The notes under the pieces: model-generated
Seen by the model: the letters and a program-made list of their open reading frames with translations, nothing else
Database searches by the model: none
What the model was told of the DNA's origin: nothing
Program-made: the position numbers and the translations under genes
Source: TPA_inf: Saccharomyces
Taxonomy: Eukaryota
Direction: 5' to 3'
DNA length: 64,000 nt
Assembly: GCA_000146045.2 (NCBI GenBank)
Contig: BK006944.2
Coordinates: 480,001 to 544,000, forward strand
Shown here: in pieces, positions 9,656-38,950 of the stretch
How the letters are laid out: each line of letters starts with the position of its first letter
How positions within the stretch are numbered: the first letter of the stretch is position 1

Positions 9656-10463
9656 CCTTCCTCTCGATTTCTGGTATACGTAGGACTTTTAAAATTCTTT
9701 CTATCAATTACTATGAAGAAATCTATGATTAATGATGGCTTTGTCACTATTTGAGCAGTATGATTCTCATTTTACACCATAAACTTCACCAATTTTTTCA
9801 TTTTTTTTTCATTTTTCTTCCGGATGAAATTTATCTATTGTAAAAAAAAAAAAACATTATGCTATGTAGAAAGCTTTAAATATGGCGACAATGTTGCTGT
9901 GTTGTATCAAATTCCCTGGATAGAGTCGTGCACTCTTAATGTGGCGAAAATGATGGCATTGCCTCCTTATTCTTTCTCATAAAAGGTATTACTAATCGTT
10001 ATCTATTACCAACATAAGATATAGCTAGCAATTCTTGTAAGCACAATTACATATGTTTAGTTTTATTTTGAAAAGCAATACAAGCGCAAATTGTTTGGTC
10101 TGTTTTGGAGAGATCACCATGTAGCTGGCACTGCTGCAGATTGTCATGTAGTAAACATACTAGTAAAATATTCTTAAAATAATTTGATCAGATCAGTTTT
10201 GTTCTTCTATCTCCTATGTCATAACATACCGCTCATTTTTACTATCGTTATGTTTTTCATTCAGAAATTTTATTTTTCTTTAGGTCTTGAGTATCGACTT
10301 CCACAACATTGGATGACTGTACCTCACGATTTGTGTATTCTATTTATGCAGTATGTAATAACATATTAGTGTCACGACCGCTAGCCAATATACGATAGTG
10401 GATCTTTATTCCAAAAAATACTTATCTAACATGTTTAACAACAGATCAGATACTAAAACTTTT

Positions 10464-10850
10464 TGTCTGAATAAGAATTAACTACCATCTATGCACTAGC
10501 ACACAAATTAGCAGTATGTTCTCATACACAGTGTAAGAAGATGACATTAAGAATGAGAAACGGTTATTAAATATAATAGAAGCTGAAATGCAAGCATTGA
10601 TAACGTAACAAGATAAAGAATAAGCATATAAAGTAAAAAAACGAGACAATAACATTACTATTCATGAATACCGATTCCTTCTTCCGCATTTCTAATATCC
10701 TCGAAGAGAACTTTTAGTATATTGTGTATCATAGCCTTCAACAATAATGGAACACCAGTAATTATCATATTATTCAAACATTTCTCAATGATAGCTTTTA
10801 TTCACAATGGAACCCAACAATTATTTCAAAATTCACACATTTCTTACTTC
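10464..10850 (+). mobile_element. Degenerate Ty1/Ty2 delta LTR remnant(s) upstream of tR(ACG), with a partial internal duplication of the LTR 3' end. A ~22-bp inverted LTR-terminus fragment lies at 10393-10414
   Basis: Segments resemble the canonical delta, for example GTGTAAGAAGATGACATTAAGAATGAGAAA vs GTGTTAGAAGATGACGCAAATGATGAGAAA, and AATGGAACCCAACAATTATTTCAAAATTCACACATTTCT vs AATGGAATCCCAACAATTACATCAAAATCCACATTCTCT. Confidence 0.5.
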
Positions 10851-10967: not shown

Positions 10968-11040
10968 TTCCTCGTGGCCCAATGGTCACGGCGTCTGGCT
11001 ACGAACCAGAAGATTCCAGGTTCAAGTCCTGGCGGGGAAG
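10968..11040 (+). tRNA. tR(ACG)K: tRNA-Arg, anticodon ACG
   Basis: 73-nt cloverleaf. Anticodon loop CTACGAA. B-box GGTTCAAGTCC. T7 terminator 4 bp downstream. Confidence 0.9.
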
Positions 11041-17577: not shown

Positions 17578-19833
17578 TTATTTCAGTAGTTTTTTTCTGT
17601 AATCCGCAAAGCTTAATTTCTTTTTCGAATGCAGTTGTGAGGACGAAAAATCTGATAAGTGCATTATACTTTCTGGAGTGGATTCTCGCCTTGAATTAAC
17701 CGAAGCTTCTGTCATGATTTCTTTTGTTTTTGCTTGACTGTGTTGTGCTTCCTTTGACAGTTCTTTATTGAAATTTGAAAGAGAAGGGGTTCTACTTAAT
17801 TTATGTTCATTCTTTGATTGACTCTCTTCGACATCGTTTGCAGTTTGCCTTGACGTCTTGTTTATTGGTAAAAGAACTGGAATTGGTAATTCTTCAATAT
17901 TGGTAATGTGTGATTCGTCATAATCTGTGCTCTTCGTAATTATTAAAGGTTTTTCTGAAGTTTCATTTTTTTTGGGAACAGAAATATTAGAAGAATGTTG
18001 TGCAAATAAGGCGAATTTGAAGGGTTTTGCAATATCATCAGGATTATTTGTACTATCAATAGTATTCTTTTGAGGAATTTTTGGACCATTATTTCGATTA
18101 AGGAATTTTTGTCGATAAAAATTATTCAAAAGTATTGGAGCTCTTTCTATAGTATTTTGAGCCTTTTCTTCTAGCCTATGCAAAATTGGTGGCTCACGTC
18201 TCTTTTTGCAATTATATTGGTTGAGAATTTCATTTAATTTATATCTGTTGTTCATTTTTCCTCTGGATTTCACAGATTTATAAAGACTTTGCGCGTATCT
18301 CTTCACTTTCAATAAATAACAATCTTTAGAATTATTTCCACAGCCGCATTCGCCGTTACTCAAAATTGTTTCTACCGAATTTATCAGCCCATACCTTTCA
18401 AGGTCATCTAAAGAGTCTATTGTCATGCCCTTTATTAATTTTAATATAGGATGTTTTGAATCCCACTGCCATTTGATGTATAACTCCTCATCCTCTGAAA
18501 TATCTCTCAAAGCTCTTAAAACAAATTTTATTCTACTTGATTTTCTTCCACTGCTTTTGTCATTCCTATTGTCTGTATCTTGCAGTTTTATAGTTACTAA
18601 TTCAACATTCGGCTGGCAACTTCTTCTCAAATACCTAGTTGAATTGCCTGATAAGCGTGCATCTATATATATCGGCCAATGGGAATGGAAAATGACCCTT
18701 CTTTTAGCTGTACCCCATATCCTGTAATGGTTTCGTGGGTCAGTGAGATAATTTTTATAGAAGTCCAATTCGCCTAAAATTTCTTGAATGAAATCACCTT
18801 TTATGCAGTCCTTTTTGAGATAAACTCCTAATTTCGTGAAGCCTGGGTAAGTCCTGGAATATGCAATGTCAGCATACGGTTTGACTTCAATTGACACAGA
18901 TTTAAAGGTCTTATGAGGATATTGTATGACCCAATTATCATCCATATGTTTATTTAAGAACGGTTCGATCAGATCACTTTTAAACACATTGTCTTTCAAG
19001 GGCAAGTATATTGCACCATATGCGTCTTTTGCACTCAGGAAATGCTCTTTTTTCTTGGGCATAGAAGTCAATCCATCGGAAGAATTGACAGAAGCGCTTT
19101 CGTTTTTGGAGTCTATACTATTATTTGATGGGTTTCTTTTCCTTCTTTTGTCCCTGTGGTTAGTATTGTCCTGATCCGTTGAAAAGCTATCGCCAACGTC
19201 ACTAATAGTTGTACTCGATGCTCTGTCCCGACCGTTATTCTTATTACTAGCACTATTGTTTGATGAAGAAGGTTCTACTGTTTTTACGTTTATGCGTTCC
19301 TGCTGTATTTTCCTAGCCAAGTTAATGTCTACCTCTCTTGGATCACATGAGTTGCAAAGGTAATCATCAGGTGCCATCCCAATATCTTTGATGCCATAGC
19401 AAATAGCATGCTGCCATCTGTTGCAGTGGTCACATTGGATAGTGAATCCATCATCATCATTTAAATCACATATACATGTAATTATACCCGCGTCAGGATC
19501 GACTATATACGAATCAGGTACCGGCCATTGAGGTTGCTTTTGAGGTTGATTTTCGGTCTCTTCTTTTGCTGCCGTGGATGTTGCTGCTTCTGCCGCCGAT
19601 TGCTCAGTAGCTTTCTTTAAAGGTAAAGAAACTGTGGATGCTGTAGCCAGTGCTGCTGCTGCCATTTCTATTGCTCCTTTTTTTTCTCTCTCATGAGACT
19701 CATCATGCTCAATAGTATCTGTTTTAGAGCCTATTTTTGAAGCTTCTTCAGCTCTTTTTTTCCCTTTTGAAAACAATAACAATGTGGATGCATCATCTAG
19801 GAGCGACTGCTCTTTGGAATTAGGTACTGACAT
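17578..19833 (-). CDS. SET3: SET3C histone deacetylase complex subunit with a PHD finger and a SET domain, 751 aa
   Basis: PHD finger [28 protein letters not shown]...CNSC. SET motifs [10 protein letters not shown] and ELYIKWQWD. Confidence 0.85.
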
Positions 19834-31998: not shown

Positions 31999-33159
31999 TT
32001 AATCACGCCAGGCTGCGTATACTTCATCGGTTCTGAATTTCTGCGTAACAACAGTTTCAGAAAAGTCCTTCACGATCCCACCCATTCTATACTCTAGTAG
32101 TCCTGCTTGGGCAATCATAACTCCGTTATCGATACAAAACCTATTATCTGTAGCATGTACTTGCCCATTGGCCCTGTCTTTACACATTTGCGCCATCATT
32201 TCTTGTAATCGCACGTTACAACCAACACCGCCTACGATCAAAACTTGATTGGAGTTAACGTGAGCCATAGCTCTTTCTGTTATTTCAACTAGCATGGCGA
32301 ATAGGTTCTCTTGCAGAGAGTAGCAAAGATCCTCTACAGTGACTTTTTGCTCGCCCGTTGTCTTGTCGAATAGGATCTTATTTTTCTTATTGCCCTTAAA
32401 TAGATCCTTGGCAAGTAAATCGATGGAAGCCAATATACCACTCATCGAAAGATCCATCCCCTTTACTGTATAGGGAAGTTCTACCAAGTTTTCTTTGTGA
32501 GGGGCTTTTTTAGCTAACTGCTCGATGTTGTAGCCAGGCGAGGGCTCATTAGGTATCTTCAGAGTTCTTGCAAATCTATCAAGACAATTACCGATAGCAA
32601 TATCAAGCGTTTCACCAAAGATACGGTACCTTTTTTCCGAGTATGCAATAACTTGTGTATTTCCACCACTTACATACAGTACCACAGGATTTTGAGCTTT
32701 AGTGATTTCTCTCCCCATTTCGATGTGACCAATGCAGTGGTTTACTCCCACCAGTGGCACGTCCCACAGTAAGGAGCACGTTCTGGCGGCGATGACAACT
32801 GAATGCAGAGGGGCCCCCATGCCGGGACCTTTGGTAAAGCAAATTACATCAATGTCTAGTGTCGGGCTTTTGATGTCAGCTTCGGCCAGTGCTTGTTTTA
32901 TGAGTCTTATGCACCAATTTCTGTGATGCCTTGCCGTGTCTCGAGGCAAAAATCCCTCCCCAGGAGGTGTGACATATGTGTCTCTAATATTAGAAAGCAT
33001 CTCAGCTTCGCAATCATAAGATAGATCGCTGTTGGCATGTTTAGGCAGAAGCGGATGCTTAACTATACCAACGCCCAGTTTATTTGCAGAACCTTCAAGT
33101 CCAAGCGCAATGTAGTAGTCCCTGCCATTTTTGGGTGGGATAGTGTTCAAGTTGACCAT
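31999..33159 (-). CDS. KAE1: KEOPS complex tRNA t6A synthase subunit Kae1/OSGEP, 386 aa (true start MVNLNT; the upstream track-ORF extension overlaps the tRNA and is artefactual)
   Basis: Kae1/YgjD metal-binding His motifs (HCIGHIEMG). N-terminal glycine-rich segment [18 protein letters not shown]. Confidence 0.85.
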
Positions 33160-33331
33160 TTTGCTCCCGACTGCATTAGGGAACGCTTGGGAATTCCCTT
33201 CACGTAAAAGATAAATATATGCATCGTTGCACGAAGTAAAAATGGTTACTCTCGAACTCATCATAATGAAAGAATTCAGTTTTTCCGTATAAAGCGATAT
33301 TACAGGAGGAATAAAAAGCAAAATAAAAAAT

Positions 33332-33403
33332 CTCCGCGACGGGGAATTGAACCCCGATCTGGCACGCGACAAGCGCCCATTCTGACCATTAAACTATCAC
33401 GGA
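33332..33403 (-). tRNA. tD(GUC)K: tRNA-Asp, anticodon GUC
   Basis: 72 nt: TCCGTGATAGTTTAATGGTCAGAATGGGCGCTTGTCGCGTGCCAGATCGGGGTTCAATTCCCCGTCGCGGAG. T7 terminator on the minus strand immediately downstream. Confidence 0.9.
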
Positions 33404-33531
33404 ACGTTATTTGTTGGATTTTTTCTCTTAGTTTTAAATATTTATATTTCGTCGAATTGGTACCTCTACAGCTCAGAAGCAGATGTCTTCAAGTTTTTTT
33501 ATTGTGTCTAAATAAGAATCAACCATTATCT

Positions 33532-33849
33532 TGACAAATGGGTGAATTTTAAGATAATTGTTGGGATGCCATTGATGATAAAGACTATAATATACATACA
33601 CAGAATATACTAGAAATTGTACTCGAGCACATAGGAATCCTCAAAATGGAATCGATATTTCTACATAATAATACTACGATTATTTTCTGCTTTCGTTTTA
33701 TATGTTTCATTATCCTATTATATTATCAATCCTTGCATTTCAGCTTTCATTAGATTGATGACTATTTTTCAACCTTATGTCCTCTTCTTACACCGCATAT
33801 GATAGTATACTAGCAATATGAATATTACTAAACAGATGATATTTCAACA
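33532..33849 (-). mobile_element. Solo Ty1-type delta LTR, ~318 bp, 129 bp upstream of tD(GUC). Left-hand flank of GAP1
   Basis: Begins TGACAAATGGGTGAATTTTAAGATAATTGTTGGGAT, the reverse complement of the delta 3' end. Ends ...TTTCAACA, the reverse complement of TGTTGAAA. Confidence 0.8.
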
Positions 33850-34513
33850 TCATGTTTTGCTTAGTAGACTCTTGCGGGCGTTCCATCCGTGTGAAATACA
33901 TCATTTACACCTCGCTCTGGGTCAAGTAATCAAAAAATACCTCGTCGAATATCTTCGACAAATCTGTCGCTTGGTTTATGTTTGACCTGATGTATATAAA
34001 ATCATCACTACCCAATTTAGAGAACACATTGCGTTGCCCGGCCGGCAAAAAATCCTGGGCCAAAAGTTAAAAGAAACTTTCTCATACTCACTCTGAAGTT
34101 GTACTATTACGAAGCACTAAAGCATTGATAGATAAATCAACACAGAACATACATGATTAAATTAGACACAGCTCTCTGTATTTTTTACTGTTTGAACTAA
34201 GGTTCTAATACTTACACATTCTTTTCAACCCATCAGATGGTGTCTTGCCCCTGCTTACGTAACCTACAACAATAGATTAGACACACCAGTGCCAAGGACA
34301 ATATGTTGCGTTCTGACTAGTCGAAGTATCATTACGCTGTGCAGATCGACCTGACACCAGACACAAAGGAGAATAGGGGCAGCATGAGTTCCGTCGGCGA
34401 CTCATTCCGACCTTCCACAGGTCCGTTGATTACTTTTTCACTGATCCGGTGGAATCTATGGTTGTTTTTTTCATCATGATATCTGTTTTAGGACTTTTTT
34501 TTTCAGCCGATCG

Positions 34514-34826
34514 CTTATCTGCTCACTAGAATCGTAATCAGTGATATTTTTATTAATAATTATTATTTATTTTTTTTTATACCATTTCCTTTTGATAAGG
34601 GGTCGTTGGTGCCGTGCCGCTATCAGGCAGCCTCACTAATCTACCCATTGACCTCATGCAGCAAAGTCACATCGCCCATATCTCTCGAGTGCGATAACGG
34701 GGAACTTGATTTGGTAACTGATAAGATTGTTAAATGTCAGTTTGGATGCTTTTTCTTACGTCCGATTAGCTTATCTTCTGGAGCAACCGGCCATTTACCT
34801 CCTCATAGTAAATTAAACATGATAAG
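34514..34826. promoter_or_regulatory. Four GATAAG/CTTATC motifs (34514-34519, 34720-34725, 34770-34775, 34821-34826) in the GAP1 promoter. Gln3/Gat1 UAS-NTR sites
   Basis: Exact hexamers 240-550 bp upstream of the GAP1 ATG. GAP1 is a classic NCR-regulated gene. Confidence 0.7.
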
Positions 34827-35062
34827 CGCATAGTTGGGGCAACACACCTTTCTTCCGGAATTCGCTCTGGATGAGACATATAAAGATGAAGGTGAAGTCC
34901 ACTTAAATGAATGTCAATGAGACGATGTTTTTTCTCCTAGATTGATTTTTGAATTCCTTGTATACAAAGTCTTGTTTTCTTATTGTCCTCAACAAAACAA
35001 AAGTAGAAAAGAACAGACCAAGGACAGCAACATTTATAAGAAACAAAAAAAAGAAATAAAAA

Positions 35063-36871
35063 ATGAGTAATACTTCTTCGTACGAGAAGAATAATCCAGA
35101 TAATCTGAAACACAATGGTATTACCATAGATTCTGAGTTTCTAACTCAGGAGCCAATAACCATTCCCTCAAATGGCTCCGCTGTTTCTATTGACGAAACA
35201 GGTTCAGGGTCCAAATGGCAAGACTTTAAAGATTCTTTCAAAAGGGTAAAACCTATTGAAGTTGATCCTAATCTTTCAGAAGCTGAAAAAGTGGCTATCA
35301 TCACTGCCCAAACTCCATTGAAGCACCACTTGAAGAATAGACATTTGCAAATGATTGCCATCGGTGGTGCCATCGGTACTGGTCTGCTGGTTGGGTCAGG
35401 TACTGCACTAAGAACAGGTGGTCCCGCTTCGCTACTGATTGGATGGGGGTCTACAGGTACCATGATTTACGCTATGGTTATGGCTCTGGGTGAGTTGGCT
35501 GTTATCTTCCCTATTTCGGGTGGGTTCACCACGTACGCTACCAGATTTATTGATGAGTCCTTTGGTTACGCTAATAATTTCAATTATATGTTACAATGGT
35601 TGGTTGTGCTACCATTGGAAATTGTCTCTGCATCTATTACTGTAAATTTCTGGGGTACAGATCCAAAGTATAGAGATGGGTTTGTTGCGTTGTTTTGGCT
35701 TGCAATTGTTATCATCAATATGTTTGGTGTCAAAGGTTATGGTGAAGCAGAATTCGTCTTTTCATTTATCAAGGTCATCACTGTTGTTGGGTTCATCATC
35801 TTAGGTATCATTCTAAACTGTGGTGGTGGTCCAACAGGTGGTTACATTGGGGGCAAGTACTGGCATGATCCTGGTGCCTTTGCTGGTGACACTCCAGGTG
35901 CTAAATTCAAAGGTGTTTGTTCTGTCTTCGTCACCGCTGCCTTTTCTTTTGCCGGTTCAGAATTGGTTGGTCTTGCTGCCAGTGAATCCGTAGAGCCTAG
36001 AAAGTCCGTTCCTAAGGCTGCTAAACAAGTTTTCTGGAGAATCACCCTATTTTATATTCTGTCGCTATTAATGATTGGTCTTTTAGTCCCATACAACGAT
36101 AAAAGTTTGATTGGTGCCTCCTCTGTGGATGCTGCTGCTTCACCCTTCGTCATTGCCATTAAGACTCACGGTATCAAGGGTTTGCCAAGTGTTGTCAACG
36201 TCGTTATCTTGATTGCCGTGTTATCTGTCGGTAACTCTGCCATTTATGCATGTTCCAGAACAATGGTTGCCCTAGCTGAACAGAGATTTCTGCCAGAAAT
36301 CTTTTCCTACGTTGACCGTAAGGGTAGACCATTGGTGGGAATTGCTGTCACATCTGCATTCGGTCTTATTGCGTTTGTTGCCGCCTCCAAAAAGGAAGGT
36401 GAAGTTTTCAACTGGTTACTAGCCTTGTCTGGGTTGTCATCTCTATTCACATGGGGTGGTATCTGTATTTGTCACATTCGTTTCAGAAAGGCATTGGCCG
36501 CCCAAGGAAGAGGCTTGGATGAATTGTCTTTCAAGTCTCCTACCGGTGTTTGGGGTTCCTACTGGGGGTTATTTATGGTTATTATTATGTTCATTGCCCA
36601 ATTCTACGTTGCTGTATTCCCCGTGGGAGATTCTCCAAGTGCGGAAGGTTTCTTCGAAGCTTATCTATCCTTCCCACTTGTTATGGTTATGTACATCGGA
36701 CACAAGATCTATAAGAGGAATTGGAAGCTTTTCATCCCAGCAGAAAAGATGGACATTGATACGGGTAGAAGAGAAGTCGATTTAGATTTGTTGAAACAAG
36801 AAATTGCAGAAGAAAAGGCAATTATGGCCACAAAGCCAAGATGGTATAGAATCTGGAATTTCTGGTGTTAA
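35063..36871 (+). CDS. GAP1: General amino acid permease (APC/YAT family), 602 aa
   Basis: N-terminus MSNTSSYEKNNPDNLKHNGITIDSEF. Twelve TM segments. Amino acid permease signature. Confidence 0.95.
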   Translation: MSNTSSYEKNNPDNLKHNGITIDSEFLTQEPITIPSNGSAVSIDETGSGSKWQDFKDSFKRVKPIEVDPNLSEAEKVAIITAQTPLKHHLKNRHLQMIAIGGAIGTGLLVGSGTALRTGGPASLLIGWGSTGTMIYAMVMALGELAVIFPISGGFTTYATRFIDESFGYANNFNYMLQWLVVLPLEIVSASITVNFWGTDPKYRDGFVALFWLAIVIINMFGVKGYGEAEFVFSFIKVITVVGFIILGIILNCGGGPTGGYIGGKYWHDPGAFAGDTPGAKFKGVCSVFVTAAFSFAGSELVGLAASESVEPRKSVPKAAKQVFWRITLFYILSLLMIGLLVPYNDKSLIGASSVDAAASPFVIAIKTHGIKGLPSVVNVVILIAVLSVGNSAIYACSRTMVALAEQRFLPEIFSYVDRKGRPLVGIAVTSAFGLIAFVAASKKEGEVFNWLLALSGLSSLFTWGGICICHIRFRKALAAQGRGLDELSFKSPTGVWGSYWGLFMVIIMFIAQFYVAVFPVGDSPSAEGFFEAYLSFPLVMVMYIGHKIYKRNWKLFIPAEKMDIDTGRREVDLDLLKQEIAEEKAIMATKPRWYRIWNFWC

Positions 36872-37064
36872 TGAATCGAACAACGACAAAAAAAGACTTT
36901 ATTTTTTAGATAATCATAATAAATATATTTATTTTCTCGTCATTAATCTAAAGAAAAAAGGGAAATGTTTATAGTCAAAAATTGTATATTTCCGTGCACT
37001 AATAAGATAAATTATACTATGAAAGAAAGTAAGGTATTTCTATTTTTTTACTTTTTGTTATTTT

Positions 37065-37075
37065 ATTTATGTTTT
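37065..37075. promoter_or_regulatory. 11/11 match to the ARS consensus sequence (ATTTATGTTTT) with T-rich flanks. Candidate replication origin between GAP1 and the downstream delta
   Basis: Perfect WTTTAYRTTTW in an AT-rich context, about 200 bp 3' of the GAP1 stop. Confidence 0.5.
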
Positions 37076-37451
37076 TCTAGGAAATGTAAAAATAAATCTT
37101 TTAGTAGACAGCGAGATGAAAACTAATCTGTGTGAGCTTCAATCAATCAATATGATTTCCCCGCATTTTGTTTGATATTTTAATTGATTCCGATTAAATC
37201 CGCTGGTAGCAGTTTTGTTTCAAACTAATTCAGCCTCCTTACTCCCCATTTCCTTATTGAACTTTGGGGATTCGGAGTTCCTTTTTTTTTCCGCCACTCC
37301 GATAACTAAACTTTGCAGTTTCACTGCTTGTTAAACATTTTCCTACTATAAATGACATTTAAAACGTAATTGAGACAAAAAAAGTTAAATCGTTATTAAC
37401 TTTCACTGCGGCTCCGCTCTTTTCCTCATAAGGAAATCCCCTCTTATGATC

Positions 37452-37784
37452 TTGAGAAATGGGGGAATGTTGAGATAATTGTTGGGATTCCATTGTTGAT
37501 AAAGGCTATAATATTAGGTATACAGAATATACTAGAAGTTCTCCTCAAGGATATAGGAATCCTCAAAATGGAATCTATATTTCTACATACTAATATTACG
37601 ATTATTCCTCATTCCGTTTTATATGTTTCATTATCCTATTACATTATCAATCCTTGCACTTCAGCTTCCTCTAACTTCGATGACAGCTTCTCATAACTTA
37701 TGTCATCATCTTAACACCGTATATGATAATATATTGATAATATAACTATTAGTTGATAGACGATAGTGGATTTTTATTCCAACA
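37452..37784 (-). mobile_element. Solo Ty1 delta LTR, 333 bp, with an intact 5-bp target-site duplication GATCT at both flanks. 203 bp upstream of tA(AGC). Right-hand flank of GAP1
   Basis: TGAGAAATGGGGGAATGTTGAGATAATTGTTGGGATTCC ... TATTCCAACA. GATCT at 37447-37451 and 37785-37789. Confidence 0.9.
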
Positions 37785-37987
37785 GATCTTGATATAAGCC
37801 CTGTCATTGATTGCAAATGCACAAATTCCGGAGATTGAACAGCCAACACAAAGATAGTATTTGGGACTTAGCGGGTTGAGAACGGTAATTATATCATGAA
37901 TACTCCACTCCAAGCTTGTTTGATACATCACATTCTTGTAAAAATATATGATCCAATTCCTAGGACATCAGAAAATATATCTACTAT

Positions 37988-38060
37988 GGGCGTGTGGCGT
38001 AGTCGGTAGCGCGCTCCCTTAGCATGGGAGAGGTCTCCGGTTCGATTCCGGACTCGTCCA
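37988..38060 (+). tRNA. tA(AGC)K: tRNA-Ala, anticodon AGC
   Basis: GGGCGTGTGGCGTAGTCGGTAGCGCGCTCCCTTAGCATGGGAGAGGTCTCCGGTTCGATTCCGGACTCGTCCA, followed by poly-T. Confidence 0.9.
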
Positions 38061-38072
38061 TTTTAAAATTTC

Positions 38073-38139
38073 TTTTTTTTTTTTTCTCTTTCCGTATGTA
38101 AGCTTTTTTCCTTTTTTTTTTTTTTTTTTTTTTTTTTTT
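38073..38139. repeat. Three poly(dT) runs (T13, T6, T28) in the tA(AGC) downstream / YKR041W promoter region
   Basis: Read directly. The 28-nt pure T tract spans 38112-38139. Confidence 0.9.
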
Positions 38140-38197
38140 CTTCACTACTTTTCAATGAAACTCTCTTCAAAAGACAGCATGCAGTAAAAGCGCCGAT

Positions 38198-38950
38198 ATG
38201 AGTGACGACGATTATATGAACAGCGATGACGACAACGACGCCGAAAAAAGATACGTAAGGCCAATTTTCGTCAGAAAGCGCAGGAGAGAAGAAGACTACG
38301 TTGCAACTAGCAAAGACAACATCCACCACCACCCATGCGATTGGTCCGCGAAACCATCGCAACGTCAAAACGAAAATGAGCAAAAAAGCACCATACGGCT
38401 TGTACCAGTGGCGATGAATACGCCGAAGTGTCAAGAGAAAAAAAAGAAAAGAAAGGGCGTTGGTACAACTAGTCATGAGGCTACGCTTTTCGAGTACGGT
38501 GAAAGCATAGCAGGCTACAAGTGTGTTACAACCGAGAGCGAAAGAGACCGCTTGAAACGAAGTCATGAAAGCGAAAGCAGCAGTGAAAGCGAGGTAGACG
38601 TTTTCGCCTTTGACCAGGCAAAAGGTATCAGCTCTAAGGTTGAAGCCGAAGAACGCTACGCGCGGGCCGTTCGACAGTATTGGCGCATGACCAAAGACGA
38701 GCCGGCTACCTTACCACTGCCAGGCACACCTACCCTAGCGGCTGTGAGTTTAGATATGATTGATGACAAAAGCGTAGAACAATTTTACACAATGAGCAGT
38801 GCCTTGATGGATGCAAACAGACTAGACTTGATTCGCCGCGATAGAATCCGGTGGCACCCGGACAAACATCGTTATCATAAGTCCAAAGTCACAAAACTGT
38901 TTCAGGCCATTAACGGCCTGTGGGAGCAAGAAAAGACCGAGAAAAGGTAA
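38198..38950 (+). CDS. YKR041W: Uncharacterised acidic protein, 250 aa
   Basis: 250-aa ORF with an Asp-rich N-terminus. Position and strand match YKR041W. The antisense 167-aa ORF is the dubious YKR040C. Confidence 0.6.
   Translation: MSDDDYMNSDDDNDAEKRYVRPIFVRKRRREEDYVATSKDNIHHHPCDWSAKPSQRQNENEQKSTIRLVPVAMNTPKCQEKKKKRKGVGTTSHEATLFEYGESIAGYKCVTTESERDRLKRSHESESSSESEVDVFAFDQAKGISSKVEAEERYARAVRQYWRMTKDEPATLPLPGTPTLAAVSLDMIDDKSVEQFYTMSSALMDANRLDLIRRDRIRWHPDKHRYHKSKVTKLFQAINGLWEQEKTEKR

Follow-up and report, generated by a model that had tools for sequence, protein, structure and literature searches.

The GAP1 locus of yeast is the usual reference case for an extrachromosomal circle that bears a functional gene. 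It also serves as a model for the influence of repeats and origins on changes in copy number, and has parallels in oncogene double minutes. Gresham et al. 2010 (PNAS 107:18551) is reportedly the primary paper on this circle and deletion locus. Two Ty1 LTRs in tandem orientation, YKRCdelta11 and YKRCdelta12, which are 82% identical, bracket GAP1 and the replication origin ARS1116 (PMC11790251). Intrachromatid NAHR produces a self-propagating GAP1 circle and a gap1 deletion, and interchromatid NAHR produces tandem duplications (PMC11790251, PMC3656021, PMC10667340, PMC6298651, PMC3406018).

Direct-repeat recombination likewise generates circles and alters gene copy number in the case of [HXT6/7circle], [CUP1circle], [rDNAcircle] and the Ty circles (PMC4751563, PMC7430651). 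However, the repeats of other yeast eccDNAs are paralogous genes or units of tandem arrays, whereas the GAP1 circle is formed between a diverged pair of solo LTRs, each from its own insertion, and, unlike other repeat-bounded yeast eccDNAs, carries its own mapped origin. ODIRA (origin-dependent template switching) relies on the same origin, ARS1116, likewise raises the copy number of GAP1 and proceeds via a circular intermediate as well (PMC11790251, PMC6298651). It differs in that it depends on template switching at the replication fork and on short inverted repeats instead of LTRs, and in yielding inverted triplications, in contrast to the hybrid-LTR deletions, circles or tandem duplications that arise through the LTRs.

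Anatomy of the GAP1 interval

The window, a stretch of 64,000 nucleotides from S. cerevisiae chromosome XI (chrXI coordinate = window coordinate + 480000), almost certainly contains the known YKRCdelta11-GAP1-ARS1116-YKRCdelta12 locus, at which LTR recombination leads to gap1 deletion, circle formation and tandem duplication (Table 1). This identity follows from the layout, the Gap1p sequence and the uniquely mapping circle primers. The product of the ORF between the LTRs matches Pfam AA_permease with E = 1.5e-170 and has the same amino-acid sequence as S288C Gap1p, and the [GAP1circle] inverse-PCR primers 961/962 (PMC7430651) have unique, outward-facing matches at 37260-37280 (+) and 33913-33933 (-), just inside both LTRs. 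In addition, adding 480000 to the coordinates of the stretch between the outer ends of the two tRNA genes gives the published interval chrXI 513332-518060 (PMC11790251). The initial annotation, which had named GAP1 at these coordinates and called the interval the described GAP1-circle and gap1-deletion locus, agrees with all of these lines of evidence and with the 82% identity of the LTRs. The window carries the unrearranged allele, without any difference from the described locus. The locus has been described in print since 2010, and the reading of the window itself brings nothing new; the new context comes from other strains, in which the right-hand LTR proves to be young, polymorphic and located in a Ty hotspot. 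Five GATAAG/CTTATC motifs were found upstream of GAP1, which we take to be candidate sites for nitrogen-regulated GATA factors, and this upstream region would travel with the excised unit.

Table 1. Features of the GAP1 interval (window coordinates)
Feature	Position	Strand	Basis or remark
tRNA-Asp(GTC), tD(GUC)K	33331..33404	-	ARAGORN
Left solo delta LTR YKRCdelta11, 318 bp	33532..33849	-	repeat/alignment analysis, BLAST
GAP1 upstream region	33850..35062	+	five GATAAG/CTTATC motifs at 34514, 34594, 34720, 34770, 34821 (motif scan)
GAP1 ORF, general amino-acid permease, 602 aa + stop	35063..36871	+	ORF list, Pfam, S288C identity
Intergenic stretch between GAP1 and right LTR, 576 bp	36872..37447		ARS1116 placed here by literature
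ACS-like cluster, candidate ORC-binding core	37036..37097		exact ATTTATGTTTT at 37065-37075 (+), plus 10/11 matches
GATCT TSD of delta12, left copy	37448..37452		flank inspection
Right solo delta LTR YKRCdelta12, 332 bp	37453..37784	-	repeat/alignment analysis, BLAST
GATCT TSD of delta12, right copy	37785..37789		flank inspection
tRNA-Ala(AGC), tA(AGC)K2	37987..38061	+	ARAGORN

The anatomy of the locus was observed directly in this analysis. On the + strand, both LTRs read TGA(C/G)AAATGGG...CAACA, the reverse complement of a delta; both are therefore - strand elements that point the same way, and thus form direct repeats of ~82% identity spaced 3.9 kb apart (3921 bp from start to start in the direct-repeat search). 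BLAST aligned them on the same strand with 82.5% identity over 314 bp (E = 6e-84), and in a global alignment 84% of aligned positions were identical (80% with gap columns counted), compared with 54% in the reverse-complement control. These values exclude an opposite orientation and accord with the initial annotation, which had described same-orientation solo LTRs and expected more than 80% identity over more than 250 bp. The longest perfect block common to both in the global alignment is 27 bp, and a pair with 82-84% identity and a block of this length is a poor substrate for homologous recombination.

Both elements are solo LTRs, with unique host sequence adjoining each on both sides and no Ty internal sequence. 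The termini of delta12 are intact on the element strand, reading TGTTG...TCTCA (TGTTGGAATA...CATTTCTCA), and a perfect GATCT is present on both sides, provided that the LTR proper is placed as in Table 1. The perfect TSD claimed initially is thereby borne out, and the extent of the left LTR (318 bp, no TSD) stands as first given, but the original start of the right LTR at 37452 (333 bp) does not, position 37452 being the last T of the TSD. Delta11 is degenerate, with internal deletions near the U3 end and eroded termini (TGTTGAAATA...CATTTGTCA) in which one terminal base is changed, the U5 end reading TGTCA instead of TCTCA; comparison of its two flanks (TATCT and TCATG) revealed no TSD. Delta11 lies 127 bp upstream of the tRNA-Asp 5' end and delta12 lies 202 bp upstream of the tRNA-Ala 5' end. 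The left LTR entered the region upstream of the Pol III gene tD(GUC)K, and the right LTR that upstream of tA(AGC)K2. The TG...CA termini, the length of ~330 bp, the 5-bp TSD (delta12) and the distance of 127-202 bp to the tRNA gene downstream are those of Ty1/Ty2 delta solo LTRs that accompany Pol III genes; delta11 departs from these by its missing TSD and eroded termini.

Recombination products and the contribution of the LTR pair

The bracket was most probably formed by two separate Ty1/Ty2 integrations, upstream of tD(GUC)K and of tA(AGC)K2, respectively, each later reduced to a solo LTR via LTR-LTR recombination; the left LTR is old and fixed, and the right one recent and polymorphic. Intrachromatid recombination between delta11 and delta12 would remove the 3921-bp unit and leave a hybrid LTR on the chromosome, generating the gap1 deletion. 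The released circle would contain a single hybrid LTR and ARS1116 in addition to the GAP1 promoter and ORF; carrying ARS1116, it would be able to replicate, and its lack of a centromere would lead to uneven segregation. Recombination between sister chromatids or homologues would give a GAP1 tandem duplication, an outcome that re-integration of the circle could equally produce. Glutamine limitation favors amplified GAP1, and limitation for ammonium, urea or allantoin favors its loss.

The recombination products, the replication of the circle and the selection acting on GAP1 are drawn here from published work, and the proposal that LTR recombination can excise a replicating circle or delete the gene agrees with the published products of intrachromatid NAHR. 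Specifically, the two LTRs account for 90% of gap1 deletion clones (PMC3656021), tandem duplications with hybrid delta11/delta12 junction sequences and one gap1 deletion with LTR breakpoints have been recovered (PMC6298651), and YKRCdelta11-gap1-YKRCdelta12 deletions have been seen in CEN.PK (PMC3406018).

For amplification, LTR NAHR is a minority route, and ODIRA yields most events in recent experiments. Among 37 wild-type CNV clones, ODIRA accounted for 22 (59%) versus 11 (30%) for LTR NAHR, which fell to 0/52 after LTR deletion; CNVs still formed with both LTRs deleted, 42 of the 52 clones via ODIRA, and deleting ARS1116 resulted in the lowest CNV formation rate (PMC11790251). In the 2018 evolution experiments, at least 50% of GAP1 CNVs had short inverted repeats at their breakpoints, delta11/delta12 NAHR occurred in only 3/28, and no GAP1circle was selected (PMC6298651). 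On this evidence, it is somewhat probable that the LTR pair is largely a bystander in adaptive GAP1 amplification and matters mainly for deletions and a minority of small focal duplications. However, focal amplifications disappeared once the LTRs were deleted (PMC11790251), the LTRs lie behind the great majority of gap1 deletion clones cited above, and a natural duplication described below has a mosaic LTR at its junction. Moreover, a bystander role in most amplifications is compatible with the main explanation, LTR recombination as a source of deletions, circles and duplications, since hybrid-LTR duplications and deletions are directly documented (PMC3656021, PMC6298651, PMC3406018).

The ACS match and ARS1116

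GAP1 is located "directly upstream of" ARS1116, with the LTRs flanking both (PMC11790251, Fig. 1A legend), and ARS1116 is also covered as the origin at the GAP1 locus in another study (PMC10667340). Orc1 and Orc2 ChIP enrichment over ARS1116 (PMC7332104) and an early, efficient BrdU peak (PMC7826286) have been reported. The initial annotation had pointed to a perfect ACS inside the interval, and ATTTATGTTTT at 37065 is indeed an 11/11 match to WTTTAYRTTTW and the only exact one in the LTR-to-LTR interval. It is accompanied by 10/11 matches at 37036(+), 37046(+), 37081(-) and 37087(-), four such matches in 62 bp, half of them on the - strand. A+T content is 74-84% over 36872-37121 and, within the intergenic stretch, peaks at 84% in the 50 bp of 37022-37071, and the sequence of the ACS cluster is unchanged in 35 of 41 copies of the locus from other strains. 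Nevertheless, exact ACS matches are not above chance in the window (2 in 64 kb against 2.65 expected, with at least 2 in 75 of 100 shuffles), and an ACS match alone is thus no evidence of an origin. Origin activity inside the LTR interval rests on the ARS1116 literature, not on the ACS motif, and the ORC-binding role of the 37065 match is a putative one, suggested by its sequence.

It is possible, if somewhat doubtful, that this exact match is not the functional ORC site and that ARS1116 acts through other near-matches, their redundancy or its chromatin context. Apart from the chance-level frequency of exact matches, ARS1116 has been classified as a "chromatin-dependent" origin with the entry "Predicted proACS, nonessential" (PMC3772097, Table S2), and its apparent Kd for ORC binding in vitro is 19-fold that of ARS317, i.e., weaker (PMC3772097); redundancy is plausible given the tight clustering of four 10/11 matches, two of them on the opposite strand. 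However, the "proACS" of that study may be a sequence other than the 37065 match, which remains the sole exact one in the interval and falls in the 50 bp of highest A+T content in the intergenic stretch. Either way, the choice of site bears only on the bases contacted by ORC and leaves the presence of an origin between the LTRs unaffected.

The right-hand LTR in natural strains

The locus was surveyed in 25 natural assemblies, a small, non-random sample uncorrected for shared ancestry, and its natural polymorphism was likewise directly observed. Delta11 is present at the same site in all 25 (93.7-100% identity). Delta12 occupies its site in 8/25, and the other 17/25 have a precise empty site with a single GATCT; eight of the 25 have no LTR whatever between GAP1 and tA(AGC)K2. 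Alternative Ty insertions carry their own TSDs (CACTG, GATTG and ATGTT for deltas; GATTG and GACTA for tau-like elements), and in two assemblies (L031 and L035) the elements are full-length, with PPT and TYB ORFs in the vicinity. The precise delta12 empty sites and these further insertions indicate independent, tRNA-targeted integration of the two LTRs, and constitute stronger evidence for it than the initial annotation had offered.

Between GAP1 and tA(AGC)K2, the survey identified six full-length delta insertions of independent origin, all of them direct relative to delta11 (S288C delta12, the L004 type, the L008 type, L024, the full-length Ty in L031 and the junction element in L019), and one 152-bp delta fragment in L019 is inverted. 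Delta12 is missing from most of the non-S288C-like haplotypes sampled, and in other lineages at least four further independent Ty insertions upstream of tA(AGC)K2 rebuild the direct-repeat bracket around GAP1 and ARS1116. We propose only tentatively, and consider it rather unlikely, that the S288C LTR bracket is a recent, lineage-restricted allele and not a feature of the species, with delta11 fixed. The polymorphism of delta12 predicts strain-to-strain differences in the ease of GAP1 deletion or circularisation; if the proposal were true, differences in gap1-deletion and circle rates among strains would be wide, and LTR NAHR at GAP1, or re-integration of the circle, would occur outside the chemostat too. 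A limited literature search found no paper describing natural delta12 polymorphism or rebuilt GAP1 brackets, part of which may already be known; a 2025 preprint used read depth to show that GAP1 copy number varies between natural isolates.

It is very unlikely that the bracket is no accident of Pol III targeting but an architecture maintained by selection, serving evolvability or acting as a reversible "hub-switch" when nitrogen supply changes. The uniform orientation of the six insertions, which would suit such a device, is accounted for just as well by an orientation bias with respect to the tRNA gene: of 12 delta insertions at the two tRNA genes, 10 are directed away from the tRNA, and four of these, on the left side, are inverted with respect to delta11. 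The pattern also comes from the limited sample described above, in which most assemblies lack delta12 and some lack any LTR on that side. An accidental origin is favored by the young age and polymorphism of the right LTR, an insertion within a Ty hotspot, and no selection for the architecture is needed, because new Ty insertions reach the same places within ~137 laboratory generations: in an LTR-deleted strain, de novo insertions upstream of the same tRNA genes restored the bracket (PMC11790251). The original suggestion that the cassette arose by chance from Pol III-targeted integration is accordingly favored by the delta12 polymorphism, the empty sites and the repeated Ty insertions at the same tRNA genes.

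One natural assembly (L019; GCA_030035955.1) contains a ~4.1-kb tandem duplication of GAP1 with a mosaic LTR at its junction. The left 150 bp of this LTR are 88% delta12-like and 77% delta11-like, and the right 171 bp are 94-95% delta11-like and 76% delta12-like. The switch point coincides with the longest block common to the LTRs, the junction joins two different haplotypes, and the right-hand LTR partner in this duplication differs from the delta12 of S288C.

Identity and anatomy of the GAP1 locus

The open reading frame between the two LTRs encodes a product that matches Pfam AA_permease (E = 1.5e-170) and has the same sequence as S288C Gap1p. Published descriptions leave no doubt that the locus is YKRCdelta11-GAP1-ARS1116-YKRCdelta12: on chromosome XI, GAP1 lies between the Ty1 LTRs YKRCdelta11 and YKRCdelta12 (hereafter delta11 and delta12), which are tandemly oriented and share 82% identity, and the replication origin ARS1116 follows directly downstream of the gene (PMC11790251). 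The same study draws the locus at chrXI 513332-518060, which is the window's stretch from one tRNA gene to the other shifted by 480000. In addition, the inverse-PCR primers (961/962) published for detecting [GAP1circle] (PMC7430651) match uniquely at 37260-37280 (+) and 33913-33933 (-), facing outward just inside the LTRs, so that a product of ~0.6 kb is expected only from a delta12/delta11 junction. Protein identity, chromosomal span and primer positions all agree with the initial annotation, which had recognized here the described GAP1-circle and gap1-deletion locus. The finding is the type locus of an already known system, and the testable features of that system were found in the window, except for a target-site duplication (TSD) at delta11 and an ARS consensus (ACS) motif statistically above chance.

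Features of the GAP1 locus in the window and insertions between GAP1 and tRNA-Ala in other assemblies (window positions or equivalents)
Feature	Assembly	Position	Strand	Remarks
tRNA-Asp(GTC), tD(GUC)K	window	33331-33404	-	ARAGORN
delta11	window	33532-33849, 318 bp	-	eroded: U5 end TGTCA, not TCTCA; deletions near U3 end
GAP1 ORF	window	35063-36871	+	602 aa; between delta11 and delta12
delta12	window	37453-37784, 332 bp	-	GATCT flanks at 37448-37452 and 37785-37789
tRNA-Ala(AGC), tA(AGC)K2	window	37987-38061	+	ARAGORN
Other delta	L008, L021, L023	37326		TSD CACTG
Other delta	L004	37813, 24 bp right of delta12 position		TSD GATTG; 99.7% identical to delta12
Other delta	L024	~37974		complex insertion
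Full-length Ty	L031	<=1 bp from GATTG site
Tau-like (Ty4) LTR	L032, L036	at GATTG site, 371 bp		TSD GATTG

Within 33000-38400, two long direct repeats were found, 3921 bp apart from start to start. In a BLAST search against the window, delta11 and delta12 matched over 314 bp at 82.5% identity (E = 6e-84), and their global alignment gave 84% over aligned positions (80% with gap columns), a longest shared perfect block of 27 bp and 54% for the reverse-complement control, bearing out the annotated same-orientation pair and the identity expected for it, more than 80% over more than 250 bp. On the plus strand both LTRs read TGA(C/G)AAATGGG...CAACA, the reverse complement of a delta (TGTTG...TCTCA), which places both on the minus strand in the same orientation. 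Delta11, annotated as lacking a clean TSD, indeed has none, since its flanks are TATCT and TCATG. The perfect GATCT duplication proposed for delta12 is present, but 37452, the start assigned to that LTR, still belongs to the duplication as its final T, so the LTR proper begins at 37453. Each LTR lies beside its own tRNA gene, as had been noted, delta11 127 bp upstream of the 5' end of tRNA-Asp and delta12 202 bp upstream of that of tRNA-Ala.

Immediately beyond their U5 ends, the two LTRs are flanked by 7-bp stretches that agree at six positions (ATTATCT at 33525-33531 and ATGATCT at 37446-37452); this likeness is probably coincidental, as at delta12 it is pre-existing target sequence that is also seen in empty sites. 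A third, degenerate delta LTR (~10469-10787) lies ~23 kb left of GAP1, oriented oppositely to delta11 and delta12, with which it shares 69-70% identity. It has LTR fragments on either side (10388-10414 and 10788-10842), and the whole group is upstream of tRNA-Arg(ACG) at 10968-11040. About 35 uninterrupted T residues occur at 38105-38139, ~45 bp downstream of tRNA-Ala, preceded by a shorter T-rich stretch at 38074-38087.

The consensus match and ARS1116

An exact WTTTAYRTTTW match, ATTTATGTTTT, is present at 37065-37075, as annotated, and is the sole exact match between the LTRs. Its frequency is at chance level, with two exact matches in the 64-kb window against 2.65 expected from shuffles, so by itself it is not evidence for an origin. 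The other exact match is TTTTACGTTTA, on the plus strand at 19282-19292. Within the 576 bp that separate GAP1 from delta12, the match at 37065 falls where A+T content is highest (84%). Four 10/11 matches, two of which lie on the other strand, are found within 62 bp around it, and 35 of 41 copies in other strains carry this cluster without change. Judged from sequence, the A+T-rich context and near-matches appear more suggestive of an origin than the motif alone.

ARS1116 is a real origin, as indicated by Orc1 and Orc2 enrichment (PMC7332104), an early, efficient BrdU peak (PMC7826286) and a fall in the formation rate of GAP1 copy-number variants when it is deleted (PMC11790251). Table S2 of PMC3772097 lists it as 'chromatin-dependent', with the site status 'Predicted proACS, nonessential'; in vitro, its ORC binding is weak, with an apparent Kd ~19-fold that of ARS317 (PMC3772097). 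Neither coordinates nor a tested ACS for ARS1116 were found in the text of PMC11790251 or in the supplements of PMC3772097, PMC3613586, PMC2932696, PMC7332104 and PMC6753640. If the nonessential predicted proACS is the match at 37065, the neighbouring near-matches probably act redundantly.

Routes to GAP1 deletion and amplification

Recombination outcomes at GAP1 are drawn here from published work, and the size of the excised unit from the anatomy of the window. Intrachromatid recombination between delta11 and delta12 deletes GAP1 and releases a self-replicating circle, which by the anatomy measures 3921 bp and carries a single hybrid LTR, 1.2 kb of GAP1 upstream sequence with five GATAAG/CTTATC motifs, the ORF and the origin region. 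The two LTRs account for 90% of gap1 deletion clones (PMC3656021), LTR-bounded gap1 deletions also occur in CEN.PK (PMC3406018), and the GAP1 circle is the standard example of functional yeast eccDNA (PMC10667340). The same LTR recombination between chromatids yields tandem duplications, from which hybrid delta11/delta12 junction sequences were obtained (PMC6298651).

For amplification, the closest distinct mechanism is origin-dependent template switching (ODIRA), which acts on the same gene and origin, GAP1 and ARS1116. Among wild-type GAP1 amplification clones, 22/37 were attributed to ODIRA and 11/37 to homologous recombination between LTRs, and with both LTRs removed amplification persisted, 42/52 clones arising by ODIRA (PMC11790251). 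An earlier study, from 2018, found LTR recombination in 3 of 28 amplifications and no selected circles (PMC6298651). LTR recombination is thus a minority route to amplified GAP1, which qualifies the initial account of the locus.

Polymorphism of the cassette among strains

The locus was surveyed in 25 natural S. cerevisiae assemblies whose Gap1 is either the S288C protein or one of four other variants, together with one synthetic chromosome, and the loci were mapped onto the window; this is a small sample that was not drawn at random. All 25 natural assemblies have delta11 where the window has it (93.7-100% identity), and in three of them nested elements interrupt it. Delta12 (37448-37789; comparison covering L004, L008, L010/L019, L021-L025 and L031-L039) occurs at the S288C site in 8/25, all of them S288C-protein haplotypes, and the other 17 have a precise empty site there, in which GATCT occurs once. 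The two LTRs therefore represent separate events of very different age. Between GAP1 and tRNA-Ala, six of the 17 assemblies without delta12 carry another delta in the same orientation, counting the full-length Ty of L031, two only a Ty4 tau-like LTR, eight no LTR (8/25 overall) and one a tandem duplication. The GATTG site (37809-37814 equivalent, ~175 bp upstream of tRNA-Ala) was hit three times independently, in L004, L032/L036 and L031. Nearer tRNA-Asp, L003 carries an inverted delta 2 bp right of delta11 (L003:3452-3789, TSD ATGTT), and in L004 a tau-like LTR within delta11 (L004:3187-3557, TSD GACTA) splits the homology open to recombination.

The precise empty sites and the other strains' insertions with their own TSDs substantiate the proposal of two independent tRNA-targeted insertions. 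By strain comparison, the region upstream of tA(AGC)K2 is a recurrent Ty target, and these natural insertions agree with experiment: after LTR deletion, new Ty insertions arose upstream of the same tRNA genes and recombination then amplified GAP1 (PMC11790251). A selected architecture has been suggested (PMC3656021). The survey, small and not random, and the LTR-deletion experiment argue against it and for the annotated origin of the cassette by chance, given the empty delta12 sites and the repeated Ty landings upstream of tRNA-Ala. Of the 12 delta-type insertions in the two tRNA-upstream regions (33405-33860 and 37320-37986) of the surveyed loci, 10 are directed away from the neighbouring tRNA gene (tA 6/7, tD 4/5; a small sample not controlled for ancestry), delta11 being one of the two exceptions. 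An orientation bias of this kind, relative to the tRNA gene, could account for right-hand LTRs always being direct with delta11. The strain comparison adds modestly to a known locus and may be partly known already; a 2025 preprint describes GAP1 copy-number variation among natural isolates by read depth.

The duplicated locus, L019 (GCA_030035955.1), carries a tandem GAP1-origin unit of ~4.1 kb (L019:4353-12393; window equivalent 33532-37868). Its order is tD, delta11, GAP1 copy A, origin region, empty delta12 site and 84 bp of right flank, followed by a 152-bp inverted U3 fragment, an LTR, GAP1 copy B, origin region, empty delta12 site and tA, with no LTR at the right end of the duplication. 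At the junction lies a mosaic LTR, 88% identical to delta12-type LTRs and 77% to delta11 over the left 150 bp, and 94-95% identical to delta11 and ~76% to others over the right 171 bp; the switch falls within the CGTTTTATATGTTTCATTATCCTATTA block, the longest stretch common to the LTRs. Copy B is S288C-like (6 differences in ~3600 positions); copy A is divergent (61 differences, among them a 37-bp indel in the promoter that is characteristic of other lineages) and disrupted by three 1-bp indels, which may be long-read errors, so it is not claimed as a pseudogene. At assembly level, an artefact is unlikely because the junction of 84-bp flank, 152-bp inverted U3 and mosaic LTR is unique and absent from both haplotypes. 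The layout fits both unequal recombination between homologues, only one of which carried a Ty insertion at ~37868, and re-integration of a circle into a chromosome without this insertion, two routes that sequence cannot separate.

In most short-read assemblies (L026-L030, Logan contigs) the GAP1 contig spans ~3.9 kb, from the left LTR to within or beyond the empty delta12 site, because short-read assembly breaks at repeats; such contigs (3.6-3.95 kb) were rejected as circles, since they end in or at LTRs or run into tRNA flank. L005 (GCA_032463425.1) lacks both tRNA genes and both LTRs and carries a recoded GAP1 (96.8% nucleotide identity, identical protein), a layout matching the synthetic chromosome XI design in PMC10667340.
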